Assembly: GCA_002352485.1 (NCBI GenBank)
Contig: DEIM01000078.1
Coordinates: 1 to 38,084 of the forward strand
Direction of reading: 5' to 3'
Length of the DNA: 38,084 bases
Source of the DNA: Candidatus Dadabacteria bacterium UBA2774
Lineage (GTDB): Bacteria; Desulfobacterota_D; UBA1144; Nemesobacterales; UBA2774
The translations under genes were made by a program, and so were the position numbers. The notes beneath the pieces were generated by a model. That model saw nothing but the letters and a program-made list of their open reading frames with translations. It ran no database searches and was not told the DNA's origin. Position 1 is the stretch's first letter. Every line of letters begins with the position of its first letter. Positions 10,994-35,992 of this stretch are shown in pieces.

Positions 10994-11635
10994 TTAGGAA
11001 AGGCCTATAGCGATATGGACTACATTGGCCAGAAAATGAAAGAGGATACTCGCCCAGAGCGTGCCAGTGGTTAAATAGAGATACCCCATGACTAAAGAGG
11101 GGAAGAAAGTGAGTATGGCCTGAGAGCATAACGAGAGATTATGATTTCCTCCTAGACATAACGTTATAAAATGACCGATTGCAAAGAGCAGGCTTACGAT
11201 TATGACGCCTTTTAAGTTGTTCCCGAGCTTATTCTGAAGGTAGCCTCTGAAAAACACTTCTTCAGGGAGCGCTACCAAAAGGAGCTGTACGAGAATAAAA
11301 GTATAGGAGAGCATACGAAACGAAAGAGATTTGTTTGTATAAAGACCTATGAGCGCTATGGCTCCTGTGTATATGAGGAGTAGGACGACGGAGACTATTA
11401 TCCCGATGATAACCCCTCTTAAATCCCACCTGAGCGCTGAAGAGCCCGTTCCGGTGAAAATAGGTACGGACAGCATTAAAAGGGCTGCAACGGAAGTAAC
11501 ATAGGGCCAGGGGATAAATAACTTCATAGCCACAATAGCTATAATGATTAGTGCGTAAATGGATAACGGGACAAGGTATCTGGACTCGCGAAGACTTGTT
11601 ATCATATGGAAAGCTCGGAATACATTTTCAGGCAA
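10994..11635 (-). CDS. CPBP-family (CAAX protease/Abi-type) intramembrane glutamic protease
   Basis: 213 aa with about 6 hydrophobic segments. Diagnostic motifs EEVFFRGY, FAIGH and HFLAN. The track start is TTG 11635; ATG 11605 is an alternative. Lies only 30 bp downstream of, and co-oriented with, the GT-C gene at 11666-12931. Confidence 0.8.
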   Translation of the reverse strand: MPENVFRAFHMITSLRESRYLVPLSIYALIIIAIVAMKLFIPWPYVTSVAALLMLSVPIFTGTGSSALRWDLRGVIIGIIVSVVLLLIYTGAIALIGLYTNKSLSFRMLSYTFILVQLLLVALPEEVFFRGYLQNKLGNNLKGVIIVSLLFAIGHFITLCLGGNHNLSLCSQAILTFFPSLVMGYLYLTTGTLWASILFHFLANVVHIAIGLS

Positions 11636-15214: not shown

Positions 15215-15324
15215 ACTCGGTTCTATCGTCTAGTACTTCTTAATAGATTTATATCTGTTCTTTCGTACTTAGAACGGAAGTTTCACACTGATATATAAGG
15301 TGTTATTATAATTGACTGAAAATT

Positions 15325-16017
15325 ATGGATATTAGTATTGTCATCCCCACGTATAACGAATCTGAGAATCTGCCTATTCTTATCGATAGAATAGTAAAAG
15401 TCCTTGAACAGAGCGGCATCGAGGGACAAATTATAGTAGTAGACGACGATTCACCCGACAAGACCTGGGAAATTGCCAATGACCTTAATAAGACCTACGG
15501 CAATATAGAGGTAGTGCGAAGACAGGGAAAGAGAGGACTTTCATCCGCGGTGCTCGACGGGTTTACCGAGTCCGGGAGCCCGATACTAGGGGTGATGGAC
15601 GCAGATTTAAGCCATCCGCCAGAGAAGATACCCGAGCTTGTGGAGCCTATATTAAATCGTGAGGCCGATATCACAATAGGAAGCAGGTATATAAACAGTG
15701 GGGAAATAGAGCAATGGCCATTGATGAGAAAATTATCTTCCAAGCTGGCTACACTGGCAGCTTGCAAACTTACCAGCGTTAAAGACCCGATGTCGGGCTT
15801 TTTCTTTCTGAGACGAGAGGTGATTGAGAACATCGAGTTAAACCCCAAAGGGTTTAAAATAGGTCTCGAGATCCTTGTAAGAGGAAAGTACGGAAACGTA
15901 ATAGAGGTACCTATAAAGTTTCGGGATCGAATATACGGGGAAACCAAATTGAGCCAAAAGGTAATTATTGATTACCTGATCCACGTAACTAGGCTATACA
16001 TATATAAAATCTTTTAA
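15325..16017 (+). CDS. GT2 polyprenyl-phosphate mannose synthase-like (Dpm1/Ppm1-type)
   Basis: 230 aa, soluble. Motifs ISIVIPTYNESENL, VVDDDSPDKT, MDADLSHPP (DxD) and DPMSGFFFLRR. Size and motifs are typical of Dpm1/Ppm1-type synthases. Confidence 0.75.
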   Translation: MDISIVIPTYNESENLPILIDRIVKVLEQSGIEGQIIVVDDDSPDKTWEIANDLNKTYGNIEVVRRQGKRGLSSAVLDGFTESGSPILGVMDADLSHPPEKIPELVEPILNREADITIGSRYINSGEIEQWPLMRKLSSKLATLAACKLTSVKDPMSGFFFLRREVIENIELNPKGFKIGLEILVRGKYGNVIEVPIKFRDRIYGETKLSQKVIIDYLIHVTRLYIYKIF

Positions 16018-16030
16018 GACGATATATGAA

Positions 16031-17257
16031 ATGAATATTCGCCTATTTACAAATAAAAATTTTCACATAATAGCGGCTCTTATCTTTTTTTCAGTAACAT
16101 TCTTAGTATATGCCCTAACGGGGGAGGGAAGAAAAACACCATACGACTATTTTGTACCGCTTGCTGACGCGCTCCTACACGGAAGGACATACCTTTTAGA
16201 AAACATCCCCTGGCTCAACGAGCTATTATTAATTGACGGAAGATACTATGTAATTTATCCGCCTGTACCTGCGCTTCTACTACTGCCGCAAGCCGCTATA
16301 TCGGGTATGGAAGCCAATCAGACCCTGGCTTCCGTTTTTTGGGGCAGTGTAAACGTATCATTAGTATTTTTACTGATGAGGCGACTCACAAATAATGTGC
16401 GAATTCAGATTTGGATGACGATCCTTTTTGGCTTCGGGACAATACATTGGTACCTCGCAAGCCTGGGGAAAGCCTGGTTTTTTGCTCATATTACATCTTT
16501 TTTTTTCCTTACAGCCGCAATTTTCGAAACATTGGGTAAAAGACGACCATTTCTAATAGGGCTATTACTGGGAGCCGCATACTGGTGCCGACTGCCAATT
16601 ATACTTTCAGCACCTTTCTTTCTAATAATGCTCTCGGACCTATGGTGGAGAAGGGATAACACTTTAACCCCGCTCAAAAGGATTGATTTGATTCCACTCG
16701 TAAAATTCGGCCTCGGCGTAGGCGTATTTATTATATTGAATTTCGCTTACAACTACATAAGGTTCGGTACTATGGCCGACATCGCCTATGACATTCAAGC
16801 GGCAAGGGAGCCCTGGTTTTACCCAAAAGGCTTATTCCATATATCCTATATTCGAGATCACCTGTGGACCTTTTTTCTCAAACCCCCCGCATTTAGCACA
16901 CAAGCCCCTTACGTCAAACCAGATTATATGGGAATGTCTATTTTAATAACCACGCCTGCATTCATTTATGCTGTTTTTGCGGGAATCAGAAAGAGAATCT
17001 CTCTAGCGTGCTGGGCTGGAATAATACCTGTAGCATTTATATTATTTATCCACGGAGGCGTCGGGTGGCAACAGTTCGGTTATAGATTTGCCCTGGATTT
17101 CTACCCGTATCTCTTAATATTGACGGCGCTTGGGATAAACAGGGGCCTGAAGGCCGAATCGGATTTGGAATGGCACCAAAAAACCCTTATTATAGCAAGT
17201 ATTCTTGTTAACTTGTGGGGGGTTATATGGATAAACAAATTCGGGTGGGTGATATAG
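16031..17257 (+). CDS. Polytopic GT-C-type glycosyltransferase, PimE/PIG-M-like by motif; paralogue of 11666-12931
   Basis: 408 aa. Motif YDYFVPLADALLHGRTYL...YYVIYPPVPALLLLP. Long blocks shared with the 11666-12931 product. Lies 13 bp after the Dpm1-like gene. Confidence 0.55.
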   Translation: MNIRLFTNKNFHIIAALIFFSVTFLVYALTGEGRKTPYDYFVPLADALLHGRTYLLENIPWLNELLLIDGRYYVIYPPVPALLLLPQAAISGMEANQTLASVFWGSVNVSLVFLLMRRLTNNVRIQIWMTILFGFGTIHWYLASLGKAWFFAHITSFFFLTAAIFETLGKRRPFLIGLLLGAAYWCRLPIILSAPFFLIMLSDLWWRRDNTLTPLKRIDLIPLVKFGLGVGVFIILNFAYNYIRFGTMADIAYDIQAAREPWFYPKGLFHISYIRDHLWTFFLKPPAFSTQAPYVKPDYMGMSILITTPAFIYAVFAGIRKRISLACWAGIIPVAFILFIHGGVGWQQFGYRFALDFYPYLLILTALGINRGLKAESDLEWHQKTLIIASILVNLWGVIWINKFGWVI

Positions 17258-17267
17258 TAATTTAACG

Positions 17268-18512
17268 ATGCGTAAATTTCTGGTGGTCTCAATATCGGTA
17301 GTAATCACATTACTCATTTGCGAGGGGGCATTACGTTTTTTAACAAACCAATCCGGAAATAAGCCCCCTATACTTGATATTCAATTCCCGTCTAGAGAGA
17401 TCTTCCCTCATGACCAAATTATGACACCGGAAGAAAAACTGCTGATGAGTAATTATTGGTATAATTTCCTGATTGTAGACGGGGAAAAAATTACAAAGGG
17501 CGATCTTTGGGGGATTCTGAGAGAGGATGACGGGCTCGGCTTCACGGCAAAGGAAAACGCTTCATCTACAAACAGATGGTGGCAATCTAATAATATCGGC
17601 GCTCGGTCAAATGTAATTACTACTAGAGCCAAATCACCCGGCAGGGAGAGGATTCTCCTATTCGGCAACTCTTACGCTCAAGCAAGCAGGGTCCCGCAGA
17701 ACATGACTATAGATTTCTATCTGAACTCGAGAAGGCCGAATATTGAAGCGATTAACTTTGGAGTCGACGGTTATGGTATGGCACAGTCATACTTGCGATT
17801 TAAGATACTCAAAAATGAGCTTGAATACGACAGGGTATTCATGATTTTTGTGCCCGGAGCAGACCTGGAGAGAGAGATTAACGCCAGCAGATACTTAGGG
17901 CTCGGCTGGTTCAGCAGCTATTCTATAACGATCCAACCGAGGTTTGTGATCGAGAACGGAGAGCTAAGCCTTATTCCCAGTCCGTATAAGAACCTTGACG
18001 AGATGATCGAACAAAACGGCGATCATGTATCTGAGAGATTAAAACACCACTTAAGGAAATACGATTCTTTTTATTTCCCGCTCTGGCACGAGGAAACGCC
18101 TGTGCTTGACAAACTATTGCTTGTTAAACTTATTAAGTATGGGTTATACAAACATAGGAAAAACACGATCAACCAAAATTTAATGAATGCCGACTCTGAA
18201 TCGGTACAGATAACAAAAAAAATCACCGAAACGATGGCCAAAGAGGTGGAAGAAGACGGAGGAGCTTTTACTTTGATTGTTCTTCCGACTATATGGGATA
18301 TTCATTATTATCGATCTGATCCAGATTTTAAGCATAAATGGAATGTTATGGTCAGTGAAGTTTGCACATATCAAATTAGTTGTCTGGACATAATGAAAGA
18401 TTTTCAGGCATTGCCTATTGAGTTTTTCGACACCGGTTATGACCAGACGCATTACGGTCCGAAAACCAATAGTCTTATAGCAGACATAATCTTGCGAAAA
18501 AAAATGCAGTGA
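17268..18512 (+). CDS. Membrane-anchored hypothetical protein, possibly an SGNH/GDSL-like esterase or acyltransferase
   Basis: 414 aa. N-terminal anchor MRKFLVVSISVVITLLICEGALRF. Candidate block I LLFGNSYAQAS (GDS-like, with Asn for Asp) and C-terminal block V DQTHYG (DxxH). The assignment is tentative. Confidence 0.4.
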   Translation: MRKFLVVSISVVITLLICEGALRFLTNQSGNKPPILDIQFPSREIFPHDQIMTPEEKLLMSNYWYNFLIVDGEKITKGDLWGILREDDGLGFTAKENASSTNRWWQSNNIGARSNVITTRAKSPGRERILLFGNSYAQASRVPQNMTIDFYLNSRRPNIEAINFGVDGYGMAQSYLRFKILKNELEYDRVFMIFVPGADLEREINASRYLGLGWFSSYSITIQPRFVIENGELSLIPSPYKNLDEMIEQNGDHVSERLKHHLRKYDSFYFPLWHEETPVLDKLLLVKLIKYGLYKHRKNTINQNLMNADSESVQITKKITETMAKEVEEDGGAFTLIVLPTIWDIHYYRSDPDFKHKWNVMVSEVCTYQISCLDIMKDFQALPIEFFDTGYDQTHYGPKTNSLIADIILRKKMQ

Positions 18513-18581
18513 TCATAGCTAAAAATCTTATCTTGACTATTATGCTTTATTGATCCGATATGCTATGTATTCCAAATGAAC

Positions 18582-19199
18582 CTATTTTTTAAACACCAGA
18601 AACTTATATCCCAGGAAATTCCAGGCTACTACTATAAACACGGAGGCAAGGGCTGATATATTAGCCCAGAGCACAGATGATACCCCTCCTATCGGTCCGA
18701 CGAAATTAACCAGAAAAGACGCTACCGCTACGTTTATAACGAAACCCACGCCAGCAACTATGAGAAATTTAAAAAACTGCTTTCCCATACCTTTAGTCTC
18801 AATGCTCTCAAAAGTCCAGAACTTGTTCCATAAATAGCTGTTAGTAGCGGCTGAGAGAAAAGACACCGCTTTAAAAACCGAAAACAAATAACCTTTTTCG
18901 ACACCGGACAAGAATATAAGAAGGTTAAGTATCCCAAAGTCTATTGAGATATTGGACATGCCTATGGGAATGAATTTGCCGAATTGAAAGAGTGAGTGCC
19001 GAAAGGAGCCGAGGCGCGAGAAAACATATACCCATAACGCGACTAAGGGGGGAATAATGATTAGTACAAATGGCCAGTACGTGAGATACGAATGATAGTC
19101 CTCGGGAATTTCGGCTTTTAGGGCATTTAGCATCACCACGGCGAAAACCGATATTATGAGTCCGATAACAAGTGAGGATATTAAGTCTGATCTTTTCAT
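18582..19199 (-). CDS. GtrA-family membrane protein (candidate polyprenyl-phosphate-sugar translocation factor) with an N-terminal 2-TM extension
   Basis: 205 aa. The C-terminal ~130 aa has four hydrophobic segments, the GtrA-type motif [11 protein letters not shown] and a terminal GYKFLVFKK. There are two extra N-terminal hydrophobic segments. Confidence 0.65.
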
Positions 19200-19287
19200 A
19201 ATCTGAGATGTGTAAATTTAAACCGGCCAGAGTATATAGTTACATAATCTTAAGGAATAATAGCATGTACTTGTATGTCCAACGACG

Positions 19288-20601
19288 TTATCTCCAGGAT
19301 TCAAGCCACATATATTGTTCGTGTTTATAATTTTCTATATTTACTGCCGCCGTAATCGGATAAAAATAGAAGAACACTCCAGCCGCTACGAGCAGATATA
19401 GGACCACAAGTATTTTCCCAAATTTAGAATTCGTGTTCCAAAGGCGGTTGAGAAAATAGGCGCTTATTATGAGAATGAAGATGAAAGCGGGCAAAAAATG
19501 GTATAAGAATGTAATCTTTCTCGGAGAGACCGCCCACGGAAGCCAAAGCGCAAGCACGCTTACGACGGCGAATATGAGAGGCGGATACTCTTTTCTAATG
19601 GCCTGAACCGCGCCCAGAACAAAGAATACGCACCCAGTCCACCATATAAACGGGTTGCCGAGCATGTAAATATACGCTCTTATACCTTCCCCTAAATCGT
19701 CATAGTGAAGATATACGGGTTCGAGCAAAAGCGGCCATGTCCACCACAGGGATTCATGGGGGTGATGAGTTTCCACTCCACCGTGGTAACCGTACATTGC
19801 GTCCTGAAGACTGAGGAAATCTACAAATGAATTGCCAAAATAGAAAAAGGGAATGTAAGTGGCAACGTATACAAGTAAAGGCAACACTCCGAATGCGAGA
19901 GCCATTCTCGGAATAATATTTGCAACCGACTTGATATAGGAGCGGTCTTTTGATTCGGACAGGCTGACTTCATAGTAATATATAAGAAAAAAAGAGACCC
20001 CTGCAAGGAATATCCATATGTATACACCACTCCATTTAATAGACATCGAGGCCCCTGCAAATAATCCTGCCAGCATGAGGAACAAGTTCTTTCTAGTTCT
20101 TGCGTATTTTATTACGAATAGAGACGCCAGAAGCAAAAAATCGACCATAAATATATCAACCATAGTTATACGGCTGAGCACGAATATGAATGTATCGAGA
20201 CTATAGAGTACAGCCGCAATCAGTCCCACCCCTTTACTTAGAAAGAGGCTCTTTGCTACAAGGTATATCAGAAGCGCGCCCAAGCCGCCGAAGAATGCCT
20301 GAAAAAACCGCCAGCCGAAGGTATTATTGCCGAATATCTTAATGCCGATTGCGCTCAGCTCCTTACCCAGAGGAGGGTGTGTCCATTCATATGCAAGATC
20401 CTCGGGAGCATGACCGGTATTCTGCCAGGCGTGCTGGTTTCCCTTGGCCATCTCCTGGGCAGTGAAAGCATAATATACTTCGTCGAAATAGTAATTTGGG
20501 GGTATTTCCAAACGGTATAATTTACTGCCGAAGCTGAAAATAAGTACTAAAAACAAGAGAATTTCGAATCTGTATTTATATAGTAGCGAATTTGAAGACA
20601 T
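19288..20601 (-). CDS. PMT/GT39-family protein O-mannosyltransferase-like GT-C enzyme
   Basis: 437 aa. Loop-1 motif YYFDEVYYAFTAQEM (acidic DE pair) and WTHPPLGKELSAIGIKIFG...FGWRF are hallmarks of PMT/GT39 enzymes such as actinobacterial Pmt. Confidence 0.75.
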   Translation of the reverse strand: MSSNSLLYKYRFEILLFLVLIFSFGSKLYRLEIPPNYYFDEVYYAFTAQEMAKGNQHAWQNTGHAPEDLAYEWTHPPLGKELSAIGIKIFGNNTFGWRFFQAFFGGLGALLIYLVAKSLFLSKGVGLIAAVLYSLDTFIFVLSRITMVDIFMVDFLLLASLFVIKYARTRKNLFLMLAGLFAGASMSIKWSGVYIWIFLAGVSFFLIYYYEVSLSESKDRSYIKSVANIIPRMALAFGVLPLLVYVATYIPFFYFGNSFVDFLSLQDAMYGYHGGVETHHPHESLWWTWPLLLEPVYLHYDDLGEGIRAYIYMLGNPFIWWTGCVFFVLGAVQAIRKEYPPLIFAVVSVLALWLPWAVSPRKITFLYHFLPAFIFILIISAYFLNRLWNTNSKFGKILVVLYLLVAAGVFFYFYPITAAVNIENYKHEQYMWLESWR

Positions 20602-20603
20602 TT

Positions 20604-21968
20604 CTAATTTCCTGAATGAATATGTGCCAAGTTCTCTTTAGTGGATTCCAGATGCTCTTTTGAAGCTCCTTCGTATCTGATCGTATTTTTTATAAAATCA
20701 TAGAACAAAAACAAGAAGACAAAAAGGTATAGCAAAAACATCCCGGGTATGAATAAATCTTCATAGCTTTCAGGAATCCCCTTGTATGACGTGGTCAATT
20801 GAATATAGGAATAGACCATATTCAGAACGTAAACAAGGGAGACGATAGCATATAAATACCACAATATCCAATGGCGGTAAGTGAGCAGGGTGAAAAATAC
20901 GATTGCAGGGAGGAGGTGTCTTTCGTGGGCGCGTGTGATAAACAAAAAGAGAGAGAATATAATAAGGGTAATCGCCTGGTATATAAAATAGGAAAAATCC
21001 TTACCGCGCTCTCCGCGGCTTTTGTAGACTACACGGACAAGGAGAGCACCGATCAAAGTATATATAGATGCAAAAATCACTGTACCCCAGCTTTTGTAAG
21101 AGATGCCGAGAAATAAAGTGCCGTCATTCCTCCACATAGCAAAAGATCCCCAGAAATTAAAGGCGTTTAGAGAGGCATATGTGTACTGATCATAGGCTGC
21201 TGAGAATCTGGCTCTGATAAGTTCCAGAGGTCCGGTGAATATATATCCGAAGGCATCGAGCTTGTCCCATATAAAGGGTAGGGTTAGAATTACAGATGTT
21301 ATTACTATTGCCAGTACTACTTTGAGTGTTGGTATAAATGTTTTAATAGTGGGCTTCCTATATTCCCTGAATAAGGGCTCAATGGCGATAAGCCCGATTA
21401 ACGGGAACACCACGATGCTCGGGGGCTTAATCATAAACGCCAGAGCCGCGAATATGCCTGAGAGTACATAACGCCTTCCCAGAGCAGTAATTATGGAAAG
21501 AAGTATGGGCAGGGCATGAAAAGAATCCACCTGCCCCCAAAATGTTGAGTTCGAAAGAGAAGCTGGATTGAAAAGATAGACAACTGAGGCGATCATAGCG
21601 TTTCTGACAGTCGTAATTCGCCTAAGCGCGTAGAATATTGAAACGGATATACCAAGGTCTGCAAGATTTGCCGGTATTTTAAACAGTATATCTGTTAAAA
21701 ATACGGGGAAAGTGGATTTCACCCCGTCAAGCGCCCGCAGGACATAGAGATAGCCGGGCATATAGTCACACCAGAAATTGTCGTAAAATTTGCTAAAGCC
21801 GACCTCTGTAATCTGACTACCCCATATTTTCCAGGTCAGAAAGTCGGGCTCATAAGTAAGGAACAGAGAAAATATAATTCTCAGTAAAAACCCTGCTGCC
21901 AGTATCAGAATAAAACGGATGTAGGGATCTTTCAGGTTTGTGTATCTGCCTGCTTTAGCGGAGCTCAT
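20604..21968 (-). CDS. Polytopic GT-C-type glycosyltransferase (ALG6/ALG8- or Gpi18-related by loop motif)
   Basis: 454 aa with at least 10 hydrophobic segments. First loop EPDFLTWKIWG...FYDNFWCDYMPGYLYVL resembles the D..F..W ... DYPP..Y loop of ALG6/8- and Gpi18-related enzymes (recalled, not searched). ATG 21968 overlaps the upstream GT2 gene by 14 nt. The stop is 2 nt before the PMT-like start. Confidence 0.5.
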   Translation of the reverse strand: MSSAKAGRYTNLKDPYIRFILILAAGFLLRIIFSLFLTYEPDFLTWKIWGSQITEVGFSKFYDNFWCDYMPGYLYVLRALDGVKSTFPVFLTDILFKIPANLADLGISVSIFYALRRITTVRNAMIASVVYLFNPASLSNSTFWGQVDSFHALPILLSIITALGRRYVLSGIFAALAFMIKPPSIVVFPLIGLIAIEPLFREYRKPTIKTFIPTLKVVLAIVITSVILTLPFIWDKLDAFGYIFTGPLELIRARFSAAYDQYTYASLNAFNFWGSFAMWRNDGTLFLGISYKSWGTVIFASIYTLIGALLVRVVYKSRGERGKDFSYFIYQAITLIIFSLFLFITRAHERHLLPAIVFFTLLTYRHWILWYLYAIVSLVYVLNMVYSYIQLTTSYKGIPESYEDLFIPGMFLLYLFVFLFLFYDFIKNTIRYEGASKEHLESTKENLAHIHSGN

Positions 21969-22662
21969 TTCTAAGTTTCCAGGATTCTTTGAACATTCTT
22001 AGTATTACTTTAATATTGGCGCCTGATTGCGTGCCGAATCTTCGGGGAAAGTGGCGTATGGGGAATTCCTTTAGCTTATACCTTTGGTTTTTTAGCTTAA
22101 TTAGAAACTCGGCTGTAAAAAGCGCTCCGCCAGAGATAATGGGTCTAACGGAGCGATAAGCCTTAGTGGGGATGAGCTTAAAAGCGCAGTCCATATCTTT
22201 TACTTTTAGTCCGAACATAAAATATATATACATCGCATAAAACCAAGCGTTCAGTGATCGCACGGGTGAGTCCGCCCTATCTTCTCTATAGCCGATAAAC
22301 ACTTCGCTTTCATTAACTGAGGGCAGCATACGGTCAAGATCGCTTATGTCGAATTGCCCGTCACTATCCATGAAGAATATGTAGTCAAGGGAAGCTTCTT
22401 CAAAACCACTCAGGAGCGCCCCTCCATAACCTCTATTTACTTTGTGGTTAACCATTATGACTGAGGGATTTGTGGATGCGATCTCATCCACAATGCCCCG
22501 GGTATTGTCGCTAGAGCCGTCGTTTACAACTATTACCTCGTAAGTACCAACATTTTTCTCAAGATACGAAACACACTGGTTTACAGTAGTTTCAATATTT
22601 TCCTCTTCATTATGTGCAGGAAGAACTGCGGATAGAGATATATCTGCTCTCATATTATTCAT
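21955..22662 (-). CDS. GT2 polyprenyl-phosphate hexose synthase-like (ALG5/GtrB-type)
   Basis: 235 aa. Motifs LSAVLPAHNEEENI, VVNDGSSDNT, NRGYGGALLSGF, FMDSDGQFD (DxD) and DMDCAFKL (compare D.QCGFK of ALG5/GtrB-type enzymes). Confidence 0.75.
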   Translation of the reverse strand: MNNMRADISLSAVLPAHNEEENIETTVNQCVSYLEKNVGTYEVIVVNDGSSDNTRGIVDEIASTNPSVIMVNHKVNRGYGGALLSGFEEASLDYIFFMDSDGQFDISDLDRMLPSVNESEVFIGYREDRADSPVRSLNAWFYAMYIYFMFGLKVKDMDCAFKLIPTKAYRSVRPIISGGALFTAEFLIKLKNQRYKLKEFPIRHFPRRFGTQSGANIKVILRMFKESWKLRNELR

Positions 22663-28842: not shown

Positions 28843-30828
28843 TTATTTCTTTCTTCTTCTCATAGCTCTGATACCGAATACGAATGCTACAGGTACCAGC
28901 GGAATCAGTACGTTGGCGAATGCTGTGCCAAGCTGTACAGGGTTTCCGGCGATTGCGCAGCTACCACTTCCGCCACTAGGCCTATTGGTCGGAGTTGACG
29001 TCGGTCCGAGTGTCGGAGGAGCTGTTGTCGGTCCGAGTGTCGGAGCAGTCGTAGGTCCTACGAAGTTGTCGCTGAGAATAAGCGCTTCGTCGATTCCGAG
29101 TCTTACAAAACAAACTGGGAGCTCGCCGCAACTCGTGAACTTCTCTACGTCGTTCCAAATACCGACTACCGCATTGATGTAAGCTGCCTGCGGTGTGTAG
29201 CTAGGCAGATATTCATCATAGAAGTTGATGTGAACTACATCAGCTCCAGCGGAACCATTCTGAGCGTCAAACTGTCCGGCGAATACGTTCGGGACGATTA
29301 CGTCTAGGAACGCATTATCTGATCCGTCAAGGATGCCGTCACAGAAGAGTGTTTCTTCTACAGTGTCGAGCACTCTGAAGTTATCTACAAAAGCTCCGGT
29401 GTTGTTGTTTACGACAGTATTATCGGTACACGCAACGTCTCCCATTTGACCTGTGATGAACTGAACGGCATAAGTACCAGGATTGTTGATAGAAAGCTGC
29501 TCGTTTTGGAAGAAACCGGAACGGCCTCCATCAAACATGAAGTTTCCACCACCGCCAACTACGCTGTATGTGTCGCCGTCATTAGTCGCCAGCGTACATT
29601 GGCCACCAGACGGTGCATTACCTTGACCAACCGAGTTATAACACCTGCAGGCCTCGAAGTTAGCAACACCAGTCGTGTCATCAATCACACAAACCACTGC
29701 ATAGTTTTCGCAAGGCACTATATCTACTTCAGGGCTTAGGAACGACAGATCATAGAAGAGAGTCTTACTCTCATCCGTTACAAATATGTTACTCGTAACA
29801 ACCGTTACGTTGGTCTGAAATTCGCCAGGTACCTGTAAACCAGTGACGAGTTGTGGCCGTGCAAGCTCGGTAAACGGACCGCCGCCGTAAATACCTGACG
29901 TATCGACAACCGATGAAACGGCGAAGCCCATGAACAGGTTAGAGTTGGGGTTGGCAGCGTCAGGTCCTGAAGCAGCCGGTATCGGCACAGTTCCATCAGA
30001 GATACTAGCCGAGTTTACTCCACTTGCATTACCTTGGTTGGTTAGCCATGGTGAGAAGTTAAGTCCATTCTGGAAGCTACCGTTTAGTACAAGGTTAACA
30101 GTCGTTGTTGTTGTTATATCAAAGCAAACACCCTCTCTGTGATAGGTAGCAAAACCATACATGTAATCTGAGGAAGCAACACTCTTAACAAAAGTGTTAC
30201 CAGCTAGATAGTCATGTTCTACCGCCTGTCCAGGAGTCGGGCAGTTGTCAACAGCCGTTACTGTTACAAAACCCTCTTTACCCTGAAGGTTAGCATCGGC
30301 TTCGTCAACACCTAAGTTTGAAATGATGTCACCGAAGTTGTATACGTGAGTATCAAACTCAGTGTAAAAATCACAGAAGTTTCTGATTTCAACACAGTTC
30401 TCGTCAAATATATGCACGTGAACCCAGGTACCAGCATCTGGTGTTTGGTTACCTATAGCGTTGGTTACCTGAAGGGACGTGTTCCTTCCGTCTTTCTGCG
30501 TCCACCAAGAAACAATCTGTGAACCAGTTTCGTTTGTCGGAGTAGGACTGAAGAAAGAGGTGAAATCTACATGCTGCCAGTCCATACCACCGTGTAGCGG
30601 GCCTCCAATTAGGCTATCTACGCTACCGATGAGCGCGCCCGAGAAGTCCGGGAACGGCAAGGCAGGAGCGGCCTCTACATTTACTTCAAGCCAACCTGTA
30701 GTGTCTGGTACAGCCGGGCAGAACAGGCCATCAGTGCCAACTTGGGCCTGAGCCTGGTTCTGAAAACCAAACCCTAGCAAGACAAGCATTATTACAGCTA
30801 TCAAAGAAAATCTTAACTTGCTTATCAT
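28843..30828 (-). CDS. Secreted/anchored protein of unknown family with a C-terminal sorting-type tail (paralogue of 30901-31977)
   Basis: ATG 30828 (signal peptide MISKLRFSLIAVIMLVLLGFGFQNQAQA) with AGGAGG 8 nt upstream (30837-30842), preferred over ATG 30873. Asn/Thr/Gly/Val-rich with many Cys. No motif of any family I recognise. Confidence 0.75.
   Translation of the reverse strand: MISKLRFSLIAVIMLVLLGFGFQNQAQAQVGTDGLFCPAVPDTTGWLEVNVEAAPALPFPDFSGALIGSVDSLIGGPLHGGMDWQHVDFTSFFSPTPTNETGSQIVSWWTQKDGRNTSLQVTNAIGNQTPDAGTWVHVHIFDENCVEIRNFCDFYTEFDTHVYNFGDIISNLGVDEADANLQGKEGFVTVTAVDNCPTPGQAVEHDYLAGNTFVKSVASSDYMYGFATYHREGVCFDITTTTTVNLVLNGSFQNGLNFSPWLTNQGNASGVNSASISDGTVPIPAASGPDAANPNSNLFMGFAVSSVVDTSGIYGGGPFTELARPQLVTGLQVPGEFQTNVTVVTSNIFVTDESKTLFYDLSFLSPEVDIVPCENYAVVCVIDDTTGVANFEACRCYNSVGQGNAPSGGQCTLATNDGDTYSVVGGGGNFMFDGGRSGFFQNEQLSINNPGTYAVQFITGQMGDVACTDNTVVNNNTGAFVDNFRVLDTVEETLFCDGILDGSDNAFLDVIVPNVFAGQFDAQNGSAGADVVHINFYDEYLPSYTPQAAYINAVVGIWNDVEKFTSCGELPVCFVRLGIDEALILSDNFVGPTTAPTLGPTTAPPTLGPTSTPTNRPSGGSGSCAIAGNPVQLGTAFANVLIPLVPVAFVFGIRAMRRRKK
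28846..28977 (-). other. C-terminal sorting-signal-like tail: SGGSGSC-AIAG, spacer, ~20-aa hydrophobic helix, RAMRRRKK
   Basis: The last 44 codons read SGGSGSCAIAGNPVQLGTAFANVLIPLVPVAFVFGIRAMRRRKK (Cys codon at 28957-28959). The tripartite layout (small-residue/Cys motif, TM helix, basic cluster) is that of exosortase/rhombosortase/myxosortase-type C-terminal signals. Confidence 0.6.
29000..29045 (-). repeat. 27-nt-period tandem repeat encoding a Pro/Thr-rich linker
   Basis: The identical 19-mer GTCGGTCCGAGTGTCGGAG occurs at 29000-29018 and 29027-29045 (plus strand). It encodes TLGPTTAP(P) units within GPTTAPTLGPTTAPPTLGPTSTPTNRP. Confidence 0.8.
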
Positions 30829-30900
30829 TAATTTATCCTCCTTTTTGAATTTTGTTACGCAATTGTAAGTCATTGTTGTTTACCTTTGTCATTTTTTATT

Positions 30901-31977
30901 TTATATCTCTGACGGCTCAAACGTAGGAGGAATATCATCGTCATCCTCCGAAGATAGCCATGAATCCATAGATCCAGTACCGTTTCCGTTGTTAAGGCCT
31001 AAGAAACCAACGAAGAAGACATCTTCCTCAGGATCTTCGAAATCGAACCTGTTGACCGGCAAGAACAACCAACCGGCGTCATTGGATTCGCTGAGCGTGC
31101 TGTCGTTGCATATACGGTTATTCAAAGCAGCCTGTTTACTGTTAGGAATAGAGTTGTCTATACCCCTGTTGAAATTGCCTATCGAGCAATCAAAGAAAGT
31201 CGGGCTGCAAGAAGTACCGTCTTCAAACTCATCGAATATGTGAACCTGCGGGTTAAAACCGTCAAACGGATCACCTGAGTTGCCTCCAAAAGCTATACTT
31301 ATAAATGGAGCCGCAAAAACAGTATCGAAGTCAGTCTCTTCATAGACGATACCAACAACATCTGAGAGGTTATTACCGTCTACGTTATTGAAGTTCAATA
31401 TGAAATCTGTTGTGTCATCGCCAAAGAAGTCTTCTCCCGCAGCGTTAGTCCTGTATTCATAACCGCCAGGACCGTCTAATATGCGGAATAAGCCTATCAT
31501 CGCGAAGTCATCACCTGAAATAAGCGATATCGAAACGAAACCGTAACTGTTAGACAGATCCGGGTTTGGAGCCGACTCACACTCAGCATCTGGTAATTGG
31601 TCGGCTGTACAGTTGCTTACTAAGTTCTCAATATCGTAAACGTGTGTATCGCCCTTAGTGTAAACATCGTCCCAGTTTACCTCTTCGCATGAACCAAAAG
31701 GTTGGTCAACAGTAGTTGAACCAACATTAAAAATCTGTACGTGAACAACTATTGTGCTCGTCGATGTATTGGTCAGCTGAAATAGGGTGTCCCTATCTCT
31801 TGTATCCCAATAGTAGATAAGCCTGTTCACTCCAGTATCTGTCTGGTCAACCAGCGGTAATACGTTTCCGCCGGGGCCGCCAGCAATTGACTGCGTCGGT
31901 AGTACCAGCATTGGTAAAACCAAAAGAAAAGCAAGTACTAATAAGTACTTTATTTTGGACATAATATCCTGTAGCAT
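30901..31977 (-). CDS. Secreted protein of unknown family, shorter paralogue of 28843-30828 without the anchoring tail
   Basis: ATG 31977 with AGGAGG (31987-31992) 9 nt upstream. Alternative ATG 32028 also has AGGAGG 6 nt upstream. Signal peptide ...MSKIKYLLVLAFLLVLPMLVLPTQSIAG. Shares N-terminal (LFQLTNTS...VHVQIFN...C...THVYDIENLVSN) and C-terminal (QVHIFDEF..TSC....C....GID) modules with the downstream gene. Acidic C-terminus SSEDDDDIPPTFEPSEI. Confidence 0.7.
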   Translation of the reverse strand: MLQDIMSKIKYLLVLAFLLVLPMLVLPTQSIAGGPGGNVLPLVDQTDTGVNRLIYYWDTRDRDTLFQLTNTSTSTIVVHVQIFNVGSTTVDQPFGSCEEVNWDDVYTKGDTHVYDIENLVSNCTADQLPDAECESAPNPDLSNSYGFVSISLISGDDFAMIGLFRILDGPGGYEYRTNAAGEDFFGDDTTDFILNFNNVDGNNLSDVVGIVYEETDFDTVFAAPFISIAFGGNSGDPFDGFNPQVHIFDEFEDGTSCSPTFFDCSIGNFNRGIDNSIPNSKQAALNNRICNDSTLSESNDAGWLFLPVNRFDFEDPEEDVFFVGFLGLNNGNGTGSMDSWLSSEDDDDIPPTFEPSEI

Positions 31978-32165
31978 TGAACCTTTCCTCCTTGTTATAG
32001 TATTGTTGATTATGTTTCCTTTATTCATATACATCCTCCTTTTATTTTTCAAATTTCAGTGAATATCCAGGATTTGCAAGCGTTAGGCAAGCTCCATCTC
32101 CTTTAAATTAGCATAAAAACATCCGCAAAAACACAAACTTATAAACAAATTCACAACTGCACAGA

Positions 32166-32194
32166 ATTACAACATAGAATAAAAGCCTTGTCAA
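32166..32194 (-). promoter_or_regulatory. Sigma70-type promoter P1 for the secreted-protein operon (TTGACA - 17 nt - TGTAAT)
   Basis: Minus-strand TTGACA at 32189-32194 and TGTAAT at 32166-32171 with an exact 17-nt spacer. Confidence 0.6.
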
Positions 32195-32269
32195 GTCCTT
32201 TTATCTGGTAATTACACGGAACTTGGGGGCTATGTTGTTTTATGTTCTGCCTCCTTCAAAATTAAAGCA

Positions 32270-32298
32270 ATTACATCATAAATAAAAGCCGATGTCAA
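32270..32298 (-). promoter_or_regulatory. Sigma70-type promoter P2, a duplicated copy of P1 104 bp upstream (TTGACA - 17 nt - TGTAAT)
   Basis: Minus-strand TTGACA at 32293-32298 and TGTAAT at 32270-32275 with a 17-nt spacer. The spacer shares GGCTTTTATT with P1. Confidence 0.55.
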
Positions 32299-32983
32299 GC
32301 GTTTTAAGAATGCAAGTAAAATTCGATCCGAGCACGTATTTATGATGAAAAACTAGCCTGTGATTTCTAATTATAAACATTTTTGAACCTTTTGTACATA
32401 GTTCTAAGTGATATTTACAGGAGGGACATGATATTCGGTATCAAAATCATATTGAATCTTAAGAGACTATCTTACCTTAATATACTACGTCCTGAAGCTG
32501 CCCAACTGTATTTTGATTTCCGTTAGGGGTATTTGATACCCACCTGGGAGTATTGAACATCCTTTTGGTTTTCTCACATCCCGGCACACATCGCTACGCT
32601 TTCGTTTCCCTTTGGGTTCTCTGATTATCCGAAGAGTTGAAGCATACAACAATCCACTAAACTTTAGAGTCCTAATACCGAACAGCGGAGCTCGAAGCGG
32701 AGTGGAGCAAACAACATAGGGCATATAAGTATATATAGACGATATGATATATATTGCATGAAACCGAAGTAGTTCATAATAAATACCCACCTAATATAAA
32801 AATCGGTTAAAATATCTTTCGTACAAAGAGCGAAGGTGTGTATCTTTTTTTGCAAGAGCCTAAGGCGTGTATTTTTGTGATGGTATGAGTAATTGAAACT
32901 CAGGACAAAAATGTTAACCTAGCCAAATTAATTAAGAGACGGCACATAGCCATACATAGCCTGACAATTATGATAAAGATTTG

Positions 32984-33029
32984 GCCTTACATTTATTATG
33001 AAGAATGCCTTACATTTATTATGAAGAAT
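32984..33029 (+). repeat. Perfect 23-bp tandem duplication abutting the SD of the S41 peptidase gene
   Basis: GCCTTACATTTATTATGAAGAAT at 32984-33006 is repeated exactly at 33007-33029. It is followed directly by AAGGAG (33030-33035) and TTG start 33044. Confidence 0.95.
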
Positions 33030-33043
33030 AAGGAGAATATATA

Positions 33044-35992
33044 TTGAAGAGATTTACAAACACATCCAAAAAACTATCACTTATACTCATAACAGCCGCA
33101 ATCACCTACATTCTACTCGTATCACCCTGGCCAGGAAATCTGAGAAATCCTCACGGACTGGAATCCCAAGCCCAAACAAACAATCTGAATATCACACACG
33201 TTGTAATGCAGTACGTAAAACGCTACTACGTCAACCAGGGGAATATCGAACCCAAAGCTATGCTGATCGAGGGTCTTGGAACGCTTGAGAGAATACACGA
33301 CCAGATACTTGTGAGCTTTCCAAACGGGGAGGAGAGCGCGAGCTTTGAAGTCCAGACCGTAGCCGAAAAAGCGAGCTTTGACATGAGCCAGGTGGATGAC
33401 CTGGATGATGTTACTAAAACGCTCGAGCAGGTATTCGAATTCATAACTCCCCGCATATCTGACAAGGAACCTGAAATACAGAAGGTGGAATACGCTGTAC
33501 TTGACCAGATGCTTAAGTCTCTTGACCAGCACTCGGGAATAATTACTCCTGAGGTATATAAGGAATTTATGATTGAGACCGAGGGGAGCTTCGGAGGGCT
33601 CGGAATCGTGATCGGTATAAGGGACGGTGAGCTTACCGTAATATCTCCTATCGAAGGGACACCCGCCTACAGGGTTGGAATCAAACCAAATGATAGAATA
33701 GTTCAGATAGAGAACGAATCCACAGTAAACATGTCGCTTATTGAAGCGGTAAGTAAGCTCAGAGGTCGTAAGGGCACCGATGTTACTATATATATAGATA
33801 GGGAGACCTTCCCTAAGCCTAAGGAATTTAGTATCACTAGGGACACTATAAAAATCGAAAGCGTGGAGACTTTCGAGCTCGATGACGGGATAAGGTATGT
33901 GAGGATAAGGGATTTTCAAAAAAACACTCTTGACAGCATTGTTGAAAATTTGAACAACTCCCCGAACAGCCCAAGCGGTATGATAGTTGACTTAAGGGGC
34001 AACCCCGGAGGGCTGCTGGATCAGGCAGAGAGAATTTCAGACCTCTTTCTGACAAGTGGAGTAATAGTTACAACAAAGGTCGGGAACTCTGCAAAACGTT
34101 ATCATGCAAACGACAAGGACCGCCAGTACGAGGGCAAGGTTGTAGTGCTGGTGGATTCGGGCTCGGCCAGCGCATCAGAGATTGTGGCAGGAGCGCTTAA
34201 GAACAATGAGCGGGCCGTGGTGATAGGGGAGAGGACTTTCGGAAAGGGCTCTGTGCAGCAGATATTCGATATGACCGACGGCTCTGCCCTCAAACTCACA
34301 ATAGCGCAGTACCTGACCCCAGGAGATATATCCATACAGGACGTGGGCGTAACCCCGGATATTGTTCTCCATCCCGCTATTATTACCGAGGACACAGTCG
34401 TATTTGACACCACAGCGCCCAAACTCAGAAGAAATGGAAATGATAAATCTAAAAAGTCCGAGCAGGAGCTTGAAAAACCGATACATTCAATTAGATACCT
34501 GGAGAGTAATGTTGTAGAGAACGAAGAGGAGGAACCCACACCAGAGGAGGCTTTAACCCGCGAAGAAAGGCTCGAGAAGCTTGAAAAGGATTTTTATGTT
34601 TCCCTTGCCAAAGACATCCTGCTATCTTCAAATTCCCCTACAAGAAAGGACTCTCTGGACAATATACAAAATAACATCGGCCAAATAACAAAGGAGCAGG
34701 AAGATAAGATAGTGGATAAATGGCAGCTCATGGGAGTTGACTGGTCTACATCTAAAACTAATCCAGGGAGCTCGTCTGTATCGGTTAATGTATTGCCGCC
34801 GCTTCCCACTGGAAATGCAGGTGAGGAGCTCGAAGTAACAGTAGAAGTAGAAAACACAGGTCCTGAGCCAATCTACAGACTGCACGGTACTACTGATTCG
34901 GAGAACGCGATATTCGCAGGAAAGGAATTTATATACGGCAAGCTTGCTCCGGGAGAAAAGAAATCCTGGACTACCACGGTAGAGCTGCCCAAATGGTCCC
35001 TCACTAGACAGGACAGTATTACACTTGATTTTGTAGACGCAAATGATTCGAAGATAGGGGACTTTACTTTTAACGCATCGATAGAAGCGCTGCCGAGACC
35101 GCTCTATGCCTTTAATTACGAAATAGTTGATGACGGTAGATTAAACTCAAGTGGGAACGCTAACGGGATAGCCGAGACCGGTGAGATGGTAACGCTACAA
35201 CTCAGGGTCAAAAACATAGGTACCGGAGCTTCGGAGAAAACGGTTTTATCATTAAAGAACGAGTCCGGTGAAGACATATTTCTCGATAAAGGCCGGGTTG
35301 AGCTTGAAATGCTTGAGCCCGGGGAAACAAGGCAGGCCGTATTTTCCTTCCATTTACTTAAACCCTCTAATCTTGTAGAGATGGAGCTACAGATTGTGGA
35401 TGAGATATTCAGGGAAGGTATTATGAGTAAAGTGTTGATACCGGGAAAGATAAAGGATACCGAGTTTACACCAGAGGAGTCTTTTGTAACTGTGCCGCAG
35501 GCGAGTACACCTATCAGAGGCGGCAGTTATCAGGAAGCCCCTATAATAGCAATCTCGGAAAAGGATGCCGTATTCAAAACGATTGGAACAAACGGCACCT
35601 GGATAAAAATAGAGCTTGATGAGAAGCTTTTGGGCTGGATAAATAAAAGTAAAGTACAGCCTGTAGAGAACTCAAACGGCAATTTAAACGCAAAATCCTC
35701 ATACATTGAAACTTTTGAAACCCCGCCGATAATCAGCATCAGCAACCCTCCGCTCTTTACGAGCACAGGGACAGTAACCCTTAGCGGGGATGTAAATGAT
35801 AGCGACGGCATAGAGCTCATATCGGTCTTCGTTGGAGATGATAAGGTAGCGCTGCTGCCGTCTTCACAAACCAAGGTTCCCGTATCACTTGAGCTCGAAC
35901 TGAATGAGGAAGTAAACCTGATCACGATTATTGCCAAAGATACTAAGGGGCTCCTCTCTAAACAGAGCTTTGTTGTTAGAAAAGAGGGCTGA
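33044..35992 (+). CDS. Large membrane-anchored S41-family (C-terminal processing, Tsp/Ctp-like) serine peptidase with PDZ domain and a ~500-aa multi-domain C-terminal extension
   Basis: 982 aa. TTG 33044 with AAGGAG 8 nt upstream. TM anchor LSLILITAAITYILLV. PDZ domain (GGLGIVIGIRDGELTVISPIEGTPAYRVGIKPNDRIVQI). S41 blocks DLRGNPGGLL, VVLVDSGSASASEIVAGALK and GERTFGKGSVQ. The C-terminal part has two CARDB-like beta-sandwich segments, an SH3b-like segment (GTWIKIELDEKLLGWINKSKV) and an Ig-like end. Confidence 0.85.
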   Translation: MKRFTNTSKKLSLILITAAITYILLVSPWPGNLRNPHGLESQAQTNNLNITHVVMQYVKRYYVNQGNIEPKAMLIEGLGTLERIHDQILVSFPNGEESASFEVQTVAEKASFDMSQVDDLDDVTKTLEQVFEFITPRISDKEPEIQKVEYAVLDQMLKSLDQHSGIITPEVYKEFMIETEGSFGGLGIVIGIRDGELTVISPIEGTPAYRVGIKPNDRIVQIENESTVNMSLIEAVSKLRGRKGTDVTIYIDRETFPKPKEFSITRDTIKIESVETFELDDGIRYVRIRDFQKNTLDSIVENLNNSPNSPSGMIVDLRGNPGGLLDQAERISDLFLTSGVIVTTKVGNSAKRYHANDKDRQYEGKVVVLVDSGSASASEIVAGALKNNERAVVIGERTFGKGSVQQIFDMTDGSALKLTIAQYLTPGDISIQDVGVTPDIVLHPAIITEDTVVFDTTAPKLRRNGNDKSKKSEQELEKPIHSIRYLESNVVENEEEEPTPEEALTREERLEKLEKDFYVSLAKDILLSSNSPTRKDSLDNIQNNIGQITKEQEDKIVDKWQLMGVDWSTSKTNPGSSSVSVNVLPPLPTGNAGEELEVTVEVENTGPEPIYRLHGTTDSENAIFAGKEFIYGKLAPGEKKSWTTTVELPKWSLTRQDSITLDFVDANDSKIGDFTFNASIEALPRPLYAFNYEIVDDGRLNSSGNANGIAETGEMVTLQLRVKNIGTGASEKTVLSLKNESGEDIFLDKGRVELEMLEPGETRQAVFSFHLLKPSNLVEMELQIVDEIFREGIMSKVLIPGKIKDTEFTPEESFVTVPQASTPIRGGSYQEAPIIAISEKDAVFKTIGTNGTWIKIELDEKLLGWINKSKVQPVENSNGNLNAKSSYIETFETPPIISISNPPLFTSTGTVTLSGDVNDSDGIELISVFVGDDKVALLPSSQTKVPVSLELELNEEVNLITIIAKDTKGLLSKQSFVVRKEG

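Follow-up and report, generated by a model that had tools for sequence, protein, structure and literature searches.

A cysteine-containing C-terminal sorting signal of Dadabacteria and its candidate CPBP protease

We analysed a stretch of 38,084 nucleotides (the window) from Candidatus Dadabacteria bacterium UBA2774 (contig DEIM01000078.1), in which a predicted surface protein of 661 residues ends in a 44-residue tail built around an invariant cysteine. With high confidence this tail is a dedicated sorting signal and not a private membrane anchor. Comparison with curated models places it as a putative phylum-specific, previously uncurated member of the Cys-containing class of tripartite sorting signals at protein C-termini. 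Overall, we consider it likely that the tail is a Cys-class signal that is cut by the Rce1-like CPBP protease encoded in the same window.

Which proteins appear on the surface of a cell is determined by C-terminal sorting tags, and no more than a handful of pairs of tag and enzyme have been described. Dadabacteria are a widespread phylum without a cultured member. The tail marks what is probably their main surface protein together with dozens of other surface proteins, and the annotation 'hypothetical protein' could become 'surface-anchored, tail-processed' throughout the phylum.

The tail and the proteins that carry it

The tail is encoded at the end of a minus-strand open reading frame (ORF; 28843..30873, maximal length 676 residues) whose product ends ...NRPSGGSGSCAIAGNPVQLGTAFANVLIPLVPVAFVFGIRAMRRRKK (also given as ...TNRPSGGSGSCAIAGNPVQLGTAFANVLIPLVPVAFVFGIRAMRRRKK). 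Because an AGGAGG ribosome-binding site lies 8 nt upstream of the second in-frame ATG, M16 (MISKLRF...), and the public protein collection holds a 661-residue form (P0001), translation probably starts at M16, which gives a gene at 28843-30828. The stop codon occupies 28843-28845, and 28846-28977 are exactly the last 44 codons (residues 618-661), encoding SGGSGSCAIAGNPVQLGTAFANVLIPLVPVAFVFGIRAMRRRKK. A preliminary description of the window had recognised a tripartite sorting-type tail in these 44 residues; its coordinates proved exact, with the feature on the minus strand. The plus-strand translation of the same segment is unrelated to the tail and meaningless. The elements of the gene are as follows.

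28843..30828, minus strand: tail-protein gene (661 residues) with predicted signal peptide, all-beta multidomain ectodomain, Pro/Thr-rich linker and sorting tail (ribosome-binding site, P0001, AlphaFold2 (AF2) model, Foldseek)
30745..30828, minus strand: predicted Sec signal peptide, MISKLRFSLIAVIMLVLLGFGFQNQAQA, with probable cleavage after AQA (sequence; family-conserved N-terminus)
28978..29064, minus strand: Pro/Thr-rich disordered linker, residues 589-617, FVGPTTAPTLGPTTAPPTLGPTSTPTNRP (weak Pfam PT-repeat match; low predicted local distance difference test score, pLDDT)
28846..28977, minus strand: complete C-terminal sorting signal, 44 residues, 618-661 (ORF, alignments, profile search)
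28948..28977, minus strand: signature motif, comprising a Gly/Ser run (SGGSGS), the invariant Cys624 and a CaaX-like A-I-A (71 unique tails)
28933..28947, minus strand: conserved spacer G-N-P-V-Q, part of an x-P-V-Q-L-G-T block, between Cys box and helix (alignments)
28870..28932, minus strand: transmembrane segment LGTAFANVLIPLVPVAFVFGI with conserved G-T-A-x-A-N and P-L-x-P (alignments, AF2)
28846..28869, minus strand: cytoplasmic basic cluster RAMRRRKK, a positive-inside stop-transfer element (71 unique tails)

The protein has two hydrophobic segments, one signal-peptide-like at the N-terminus (residues 2-20) and one transmembrane-like at the C-terminus (predicted at residues 635-653). A Sec signal combined with a single C-terminal transmembrane segment implies that the protein is exported and at first held N-out/C-in, with RRRKK in the cytoplasm. 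The AF2 model (mean pLDDT 82) shows an all-beta ectodomain and a disordered linker, with pLDDT below 50 over residues 596-641. Foldseek matched the ectodomain to generic CBM22/CBM16/CBM4, MAM and viral jelly-roll-like domains only, with low TM-scores. The model is thus consistent with a multi-beta-sandwich surface protein that is no obvious enzyme, and Foldseek supports no specific function. A Pro/Thr-rich linker precedes the tail in nearly all tail-bearing proteins; it may serve as a stalk and is a candidate O-glycosylation region.

The Cys, which had been described as invariant-looking, is present in 71 of 71 unique tails and is also invariant in both alignments that we built (A1 and A2). 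Positions -5 to -1 before it are for the most part Gly or Ser. The residues that follow are small or aliphatic: A/S/T at +1 (65/71), I/V/L/M at +2 (61/71), A/G at +3 (54/71) and G/A at +4 (60/71). The resulting C-[AST]-[IVLM]-[AG] therefore reads as a CaaX-like box. Beyond it the same 71 tails share a spacer, x-P-V-Q-[LIV]-G-T-[AG]-x-A, and a conserved Asn 14-17 residues past the Cys. Pro occupies both N+4 and N+7 relative to this Asn in 63 of the 71 (N-V-L-I-P-L-V-P), giving the helix consensus element A-N-x-L-I-P-L-x-P; the tail helix of the target includes LGTAFANVLIPL. The first basic residue falls 14-18 residues past the Asn, and in 63 of the 71 tails at least five of the next nine cytosolic residues are basic. 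In alignment A1, P12 is invariant and V13 nearly so; G16, A20, N21, P25, L26, P28, A30, F33 and G34 are invariant as well. The AF2 model of the target breaks the terminal helix at residues 642-643, within P-L-x-P, and this element is predicted to kink the helix. Haft considers conserved polar or helix-breaking residues within a membrane segment to indicate recognition by an intramembrane protease (bioRxiv 10.1101/2023.06.07.544157). By analogy with such systems, we infer cleavage distal to Cys624.

The tail is far better conserved than the protein that carries it. A whole-protein search returned 79 homologs, all from metagenome-assembled genomes (MAGs) labelled Candidatus Dadabacteria, Thermodesulfobacteriota or Deltaproteobacteria, whose C-termini are near-identical while their ectodomains are just 43-50% identical to the query. 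Pairwise identity among the 54 homologs in the alignment averages 85% for the part from the Cys onward and 49% for the body. Codon differences in the DNA that encodes the tail, compared for 17 distinct loci, are 1854 synonymous versus 880 non-synonymous, with 75% identity at the DNA level and 82.5% at the protein level. This dominance of synonymous changes shows that the conservation reflects purifying selection acting on the peptide itself. For the same reason we rejected gene conversion, or an element working at the level of DNA or RNA, as its cause.

The preliminary description had suggested searching for further tail-bearing proteins with a hidden Markov model (HMM). We built a tail profile of 43 positions from 19 diverse tails (alignment A1) and searched it against 1.84 billion representative proteins. 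It recovered 72 clusters at E<=1e-3 and 32 at E<=1e-10, with the match always at the extreme C-terminus of sequences 25-806 residues long, the shortest being fragments. A word-indexed homolog search with the 45-residue tail alone returned two fragments only and missed the known family. Within the window no tail beyond that of the target was found. When species-representative genomes were scanned with tail-derived patterns, the 26 loci retrieved were all from Dadabacteria-type MAGs; two of them carry an automatic 'Spirochaetia' label yet keep Dadabacteria synteny.

To group the passengers, tail and linker were removed and the 55 remaining bodies of at least 120 residues were compared by BLAST. 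They fell into 13 unrelated groups, of which the largest superfamily (37/55 bodies) includes the target. The others comprise S8 subtilases, DUF7948 proteins with an SBBP beta-propeller, a lactonase-type propeller, DUF4394, DUF7453, FG-GAP and a galactose-binding domain. Passengers of these types are the usual clients of PEP-CTERM or MYXO-CTERM-type tags. Full-length tail-bearing members have signal-peptide-like N-termini. In the complete 2.67 Mb genome OZ244991.1 the tail HMM detected at least 15 tail-bearing paralogs, arranged in tandem arrays. Uniqueness to one protein, which the preliminary description would have taken as a sign of a simple membrane anchor, is thus excluded: the tail occurs on at least 13 unrelated passenger groups and on at least 15 paralogs in one genome. 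The signal is real, under strong selection and passenger-independent, and among named genomes it is found only in Dadabacteria-type MAGs.

A permanent, uncleaved membrane anchor, with its residues conserved for docking to a membrane partner or for assembly of an S-layer-like lattice, seems to us unlikely. Structural docking is conceivable given that one superfamily dominates (37/55 bodies) and that a gene for a tail-less partner protein accompanies the tail gene in 22/28 loci. In addition, a Myxococcus mutant lacking mrtX still brings some uncleaved MYXO-CTERM protein to the surface (PMC11980579). However, the tail is also carried by at least 12 other unrelated passenger groups that include enzymes (S8 proteases). 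Its invariant residues are typical of intramembrane-protease substrates: the Cys lies outside the helix and is followed by small and aliphatic residues, and Pro, Gly and Asn occur inside the helix. Related tails are paired genetically with CPBP proteases in 22-23 of 26 loci, as described below.

Other Cys-containing tripartite tails of different sequence were seen on Dadabacteria-related contigs (L024, 13807-16305, minus strand, and protein P0071): GGGGCSMAGGQGQSGSLSTIVIILLLPLLLTGLRLFRKKLSR and, on a PF23657 protein, GTSSCSLSAPGPMGKNILSDLFVLLFAPAIIIFARRYKKRIKS. These may be divergent substrates or represent a further signal type.

Relation to known sorting signals

The tail has the tripartite layout of known sorting signals, with signature motif, transmembrane segment and Arg/Lys cluster at the extreme C-terminus. 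When the full protein, its 75-residue C-terminal fragment and the 19 diverse tails were searched against NCBIfam 20.0 and Pfam, no significant match to any existing sorting-domain model was obtained, so that the tail does not simply belong to a described family, which was the other case that would have counted against the preliminary description. As the preliminary description had stated, the motif is none of PEP, LPXTG, PGF or IPTL: these motifs are absent, and the PEP-CTERM, IPTL-CTERM, PGF-CTERM, GlyGly-CTERM and LPXTG models gave no match even at E<=10. Nor did Synerg-CTERM (TIGR04564) at that threshold. Sub-significant traces among the 19 tails (E<=10) came from JDVT-CTERM (six tails, best E 1.2), GC_trans_RRR (E 0.21) and MYXO-CTERM (one tail, E 5). 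All of these faint matches fall in the Cys-containing class. Among known systems the tail is nearest to the Cys-type MYXO/JDVT/Synerg-CTERM signals, in agreement with the resemblance to MYXO-CTERM/Synerg-CTERM-type signals noted before. The tail nevertheless falls outside MYXO-CTERM (TIGR03901), JDVT-CTERM (NF033191, cutoff 27 bits) and Synerg-CTERM (TIGR04564) as these are curated. On these comparisons, it has the design of the class and lacks the defining features of each known family.

MYXO-CTERM of Myxococcota, with its protease MrtX (TIGR03901, NF040593, NF040914), also has an invariant Cys after a Gly-rich run, a transmembrane helix and an Arg-rich end. It too is found on many unrelated secreted proteins per genome behind a disordered linker, and is served by a housekeeping CPBP protease encoded away from its substrates; the Dadabacteria CPBP matches myxosortase models best, and an MXAN_5808-type S41 peptidase is likewise present in the window. 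Cys-dependent cleavage of MYXO-CTERM by MrtX has been shown experimentally in both M. xanthus and E. coli (PMC11980579). In contrast to MYXO-CTERM, which is frequently GCGC, the Dadabacteria tail has a single Cys, followed by a CaaX-like aliphatic box and a conserved spacer of 8-10 residues. Its helix carries two conserved Pro and an Asn, whereas the MYXO-CTERM helix is without Pro or charged residues (bioRxiv 10.1101/2023.06.07.544157). The phylum also differs, and the Dadabacteria CPBP scores under the Mrt_core cutoff (73 vs 100 bits).

JDVT-CTERM of Pseudomonadota, with MrtJ (NF033191, NF033192), shares the single invariant Cys, a conserved Pro in or near the helix and a CPBP enzyme, and of the sorting models it is the one that the tails resemble best, however faintly. 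The related S8-protease tails of Nitrospirota-type contigs described below give sub-threshold JDVT matches and show a JDVT-style adjacency of substrate and protease. However, the JDVT-CTERM Cys is followed nine residues later by a DP motif, and each genome has about one substrate (bioRxiv 10.1101/2023.06.07.544157). The Dadabacteria tail is without this motif, its substrates are many (at least 15 in one genome) and the enzyme gene is not adjacent. Synerg-CTERM of Synergistota, with MrtS (TIGR04564, NF040589), has a Ser/Gly cluster that ends abruptly in one invariant Cys and a conserved Pro in the helix, and the Nitrospirota-type CPBPs score highest with MrtS (64-74 bits); unlike the Dadabacteria tail with its conserved C-A-I-A-G-x-P-V-Q, it has no spacer between Cys and helix.

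Two more distant systems are instructive. Eukaryotic and archaeal CaaX processing by Rce1 (MmRce1, PDB 4CAD) resembles the present case in the C-[small]-[aliphatic]-[small] motif and in a candidate enzyme with Rce1 fold and catalytic motifs. However, the CaaX box forms the last four residues of a cytosolic protein, whereas the Dadabacteria box is internal, with a transmembrane helix after it, and its protein exported. We know of no prenyltransferase for a tail of this type. The Haloferax S-layer glycoprotein, a client of PGF-CTERM/archaeosortase A, is likewise an abundant surface protein with a Thr-rich O-glycosylated stalk, whose removable C-terminal tripartite tag is exchanged for a lipid anchor. 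Its signal has a PGF motif and no Cys, and archaeosortase is a Cys protease; motif and enzyme class are unrelated to those of Dadabacteria.

The type of system, a Cys-type tripartite tag with a CPBP 'myxosortase', is therefore already known. Absent from curated libraries and the searchable literature are the tag itself, its taxon, the combination of CaaX-like box, spacer and P-L-x-P helix, and the sub-threshold CPBP clade; the top results of a literature search on Dadabacteria and sorting signals contain no mention of Dadabacteria.

One Dadabacteria genome with at least 15 Cys-tail proteins also contains three tandem paralogs with a clear IPTL-CTERM tag (..QIPTLSEWVLILLSIAFGAICVYYL..; L001, 15460-18634, minus strand), so that two C-terminal sorting systems coexist there.

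These IPTL-CTERM proteins suggest that an exosortase-family enzyme is probably present in the phylum, and the window shows 38 kb of the source genome. An enzyme of another class encoded elsewhere, be it of the exosortase/archaeosortase family, a rhombosortase or a sortase, could thus be considered for the Cys tails. We regard this as improbable. The tail carries no PEP, IPTL, GlyGly, PGF or LPXTG motif or model match (E<=10), and the IPTL-CTERM tails are clearly distinct from the Cys tails of the same genome. For six loci Pfam annotation was available in precomputed form, and their called genes include no exosortase, rhomboid or sortase family. The window ORFs scanned, all but a few at the window ends, likewise include no sortase, exosortase or rhomboid family, in line with the preliminary description. 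Finally, the invariant Cys and the CPBP adjacency of the related system point to the CPBP class.

The candidate enzyme and a proposed pathway

The preliminary description had pointed to a CPBP protease at 10994-11635. The protease is real, and its likely start is M11, which shortens the gene to 10994-11605. It is the best candidate enzyme, now with comparative-genomic support.

10994..11605, minus strand: CPBP/Rce1-like glutamic intramembrane protease, 203 residues from M11, candidate sorting enzyme (Pfam, motifs, AF2, linkage)

The protein matches the Pfam Rce1-like family (PF02517) with 71.6 bits, well above the gathering score of 22.4 (E 7e-20). Its catalytic motifs EEVFFR (EExxxR), FAIGH (FxxxH) and HFLAN (HxxxN) are intact, and it carries the subfamily signature LTFFPSLVMGYLY. 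The only meaningful PDB match of the AF2 model (pLDDT 87, predicted TM-score 0.81) was MmRce1 (4CAD; TM-score 0.58/0.50, Foldseek probability 0.96), at an E value of 0.29 that is not significant. Pfam score, motifs and Rce1 fold together place it in the CPBP/Rce1-like family. Its best NCBIfam matches were all myxosortase models: MrtP (74 bits), Mrt_core (73), MrtC (59) and MrtS (58), with MrtJ at 37. The window protein and three Dadabacteria orthologs span 71-77 bits for Mrt_core, 74-85 for MrtP, 55-73 for MrtC (cutoff 195), 53-67 for MrtS and 36-42 for MrtJ. Three unrelated CPBPs taken for comparison (Yersinia, Haloarcula and Chloroflexota plasmids) reached 31-41 bits for Mrt_core and 27-32 for MrtP. 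By these scores the Dadabacteria CPBP is distinctly myxosortase-like, though not a member by the curated test.

The CPBP is 57-90% identical across the phylum and is encoded on the same large contigs as the tail genes. Its ortholog shares a contig with tail genes in at least nine assemblies, linked at 6-17 kb; the distance to the main tail gene is 15-17 kb in canonical Dadabacteria genomes. No CPBP paralog was found in the window or in the first batch of loci (L001-L032, ~0.5 Mb).

We then scanned metagenomes from the CPBP side and sorted the 80 loci obtained into three tiers by identity to the window CPBP. Tier 1 (at least 55%) comprises canonical Dadabacteria. Tier 2 (43-52%) consists of deep relatives that share the NadE-GltBD context, and Tier 3 (34-44%) of more divergent loci. 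In no Tier 1 locus was a tail gene found within 10 kb of the CPBP. The glycosyltransferase cluster that lies between the two genes in the window is absent from four Tier 2 loci (L071, L073, L074 and L078), and in L071 and L073 the tail-protein gene is ~6 kb from the CPBP. In Tier 3 a generic tail detector placed the CPBP gene 0-262 bp from a gene with a related tail in 22 of 26 loci, and one further HMM match brings the number to 23 of 26; the two genes mostly share a strand. As background, Tiers 1 and 2 (~537 kb) contained four ORFs with such tails.

Tier 3 tails follow the pattern G(6)-C-S-I-G-x-[RK]-Q-N-x-P-T-A-x-A-D-x-x-V-L-L-x-P-L-...-RRRR (for example GGGGGGCSIGARQNxPTAxADLAVLLxPLL..RRRR). 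They are matched by the Dadabacteria tail HMM at E 3e-8 to 1e-2 and align with the window tail element by element. Fifteen passengers were compared and belong to a single family; those scanned against NCBIfam, four in number, are S8 proteases. All ten S8 N-termini inspected are lipoprotein-type signal peptides (L-x-S-C-G), and these proteins could be Cys-modified at both ends. Named members belong to Thermodesulfovibrionales or Nitrospiraceae. Examples from the cassette loci (L089-L115) are L103, with the S8 ORF at 3016-4866 and the CPBP ORF at 4943-5437, and L113, with the pair at 7839-9830 and 10001-10393. The tails score 12.8-15.4 bits with JDVT-CTERM (cutoff 27) and the CPBPs 64-74 bits with MrtS (cutoff 130), and the CPBPs are below the MrtJ cutoff as well. 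This S8/CPBP two-gene cassette of Nitrospirota-type contigs is apparently uncurated. Its CPBPs share with the window protein the catalytic motifs and an LTFFPSLVMG-x-LY block that is itself part of the retrieval pattern. The adjacency ties this CPBP clade to Cys tails of the present design, indirectly so for Dadabacteria itself, and it is the same type of argument that identified MrtJ for JDVT-CTERM (bioRxiv 10.1101/2023.06.07.544157).

Several observations weigh against assigning the window CPBP to the tail. It scores under every curated myxosortase cutoff (Mrt_core 73/100, MrtP 74/250, MrtS 58/130, MrtJ 37/75). In none of 28 Dadabacteria loci does a CPBP lie within +-10 kb of a tail gene, so that direct adjacency fails in the phylum. 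A region of 35 kb is collinear across the phylum, and the linkage within it may be plain synteny. Co-occurrence does not discriminate because the CPBP is a phylum core gene, the problem that CGP-CTERM had posed to Haft. The adjacency was observed in a homologous system of a different phylum rather than in Dadabacteria, and the status of the Tier 3 loci as nearest relatives is unproven, since they were fetched with the motif patterns TFFPSLVM and PEE[VA]FFRG. Taking these points together with the comparative genomics, we think that the window CPBP is probably the processing enzyme for the tail.

A pathway consistent with these data can be proposed. The precursor would be exported via Sec by its N-terminal signal peptide and, by topology rules, stay fixed in the inner membrane through its C-terminal helix while RRRKK faces the cytoplasm. 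The invariant Cys624 in G(n)-C-[AST]-[IVLM]-[AG] would then be modified, probably by a lipid, as the analogy to Rce1 and MrtX suggests; that lipidation precedes cleavage is a tentative suggestion, to which we give somewhat less than an even chance. The Mrt-like CPBP may recognise the spacer and the kinked helix (PVQLGT..AN..PLxP) and cut distal to the Cys, removing the helix. The mature beta-sandwich protein would finally be displayed on the surface by its Pro/Thr-rich stalk, probably accompanied by the tail-less partner encoded with it. Cleavage, cut site, lipidation and the route of export across the outer membrane are all inferred.

If this pathway operates, the recently validated myxosortase (CPBP) paradigm would extend to two further phyla. 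To our knowledge the Cys-modifying transferase is the missing step of all myxosortase-type systems. For finding it, two favourable systems are now available: the strongly conserved CaaX-like signal of Dadabacteria and the compact S8-protease/CPBP cassette of Nitrospirota. A far-reaching version of the scheme, which we hold to be rather unlikely, is a true bacterial CaaX pathway acting on exported proteins in Dadabacteria and, as a cousin, in some Nitrospirota. In it the Cys would be lipidated in the periplasmic leaflet and the protein cut by the Rce1-like CPBP, anchoring a major O-glycosylated S-layer-like coat protein and its partner. The Cys transferase would be among the conserved multi-transmembrane proteins beside the CPBP, such as that encoded at 11666-12931.

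Neighbouring genes

Two further genes adjoin the tail-protein gene.

30901..32052, minus strand: partner gene (maximal ORF; likely start further in), a secreted tail-less remote paralog of the N-terminal domain of the target (BLASTP)
33044..35992, plus strand: S41/PDZ C-terminal-processing-type peptidase (MXAN_5808 family), oriented divergently to the partner/tail operon (TIGR03900, 827 bits, cutoff 661)

The partner matches residues 104-194 of the target (BLASTP E 2e-8), and has a signal peptide and an acidic C-terminal stretch. Its gene accompanies the tail gene in the 22 of 28 loci mentioned above, paralog arrays included, and lies directly upstream of it in all three loci inspected gene by gene (L001-L003). 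The two genes are co-duplicated, and the pattern suggests an anchored subunit with a bound partner. The partner as a second substrate of the sorting system was rejected, since its C-terminus is acidic and it has no more than a signal peptide. In OZ244991.1 the pair has been amplified to at least 15 copies (L013, L014, L016, L019, L021 and L023), while other genomes show one main locus; the amplification could serve surface-protein diversification or phase variation.

The S41 peptidase (982 residues, S41/PDZ/CARDB) adjoins the partner/tail operon in 15/28 loci and is possibly an accessory or shedding protease. The TIGR03900 family has been described as essentially restricted to Myxococcales, where its distribution parallels that of MYXO-CTERM. 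That this peptidase, which passes the family cutoff with 827 vs 661 bits and sits next to the operon, removes or releases the C-terminal region while the CPBP is unrelated strikes us as very improbable. Peptidases of the S41 C-terminal-processing type are soluble proteins of the periplasm whose PDZ domain binds free C-termini, whereas the C-terminus of the tail is predicted to be cytoplasmic. Moreover, the peptidase is missing from paralog loci (for example L001), and because the whole block is collinear its adjacency is weak evidence. It could act secondarily, for instance by shedding within the disordered linker.

Across the phylum the gene order is S41/PDZ peptidase, partner, tail protein, ThiI, ..., FG-GAP/ASPIC, GT2, a protein of no assigned family, PMT-type GT-C and GtrA, continuing with further GT-C/GT2 genes, a further such protein with nine transmembrane segments, CPBP, NadE, GltB and GltD. 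The glycosyltransferase cluster between tail gene and CPBP (11666-22662) includes GT-C/PMT-type (protein O-mannosyltransferase-like), PIG-V-like, GT2 and GtrA proteins as well as multi-transmembrane proteins without assignment. It is plausible that the Pro/Thr-rich linker is an O-glycosylation target of this cluster.

Scanning the whole window for Rfam families and tRNAs gave no match. The divergent intergenic region of ~1 kb between the partner/tail operon and the S41 peptidase gene (32053-33043) holds only a poorly conserved ORF of 101 residues (32485-32790), matched at 45% in the closest genome only. Two genes of the cluster, 11666-12931 (minus strand) and 16031-17257 (plus strand), encode paralogous multi-transmembrane proteins with nine and seven transmembrane-like segments, respectively, for which no Pfam family was matched even at E<=1. 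They share an N-terminal PYDYF..LADALL-x-GR-x-YL motif. The former gene, with a 421-residue product, is the next one upstream of the CPBP gene and shares its strand, with a gap of 60 nt, and a gene of similar size occupies this position in three other genomes (L030-L032).

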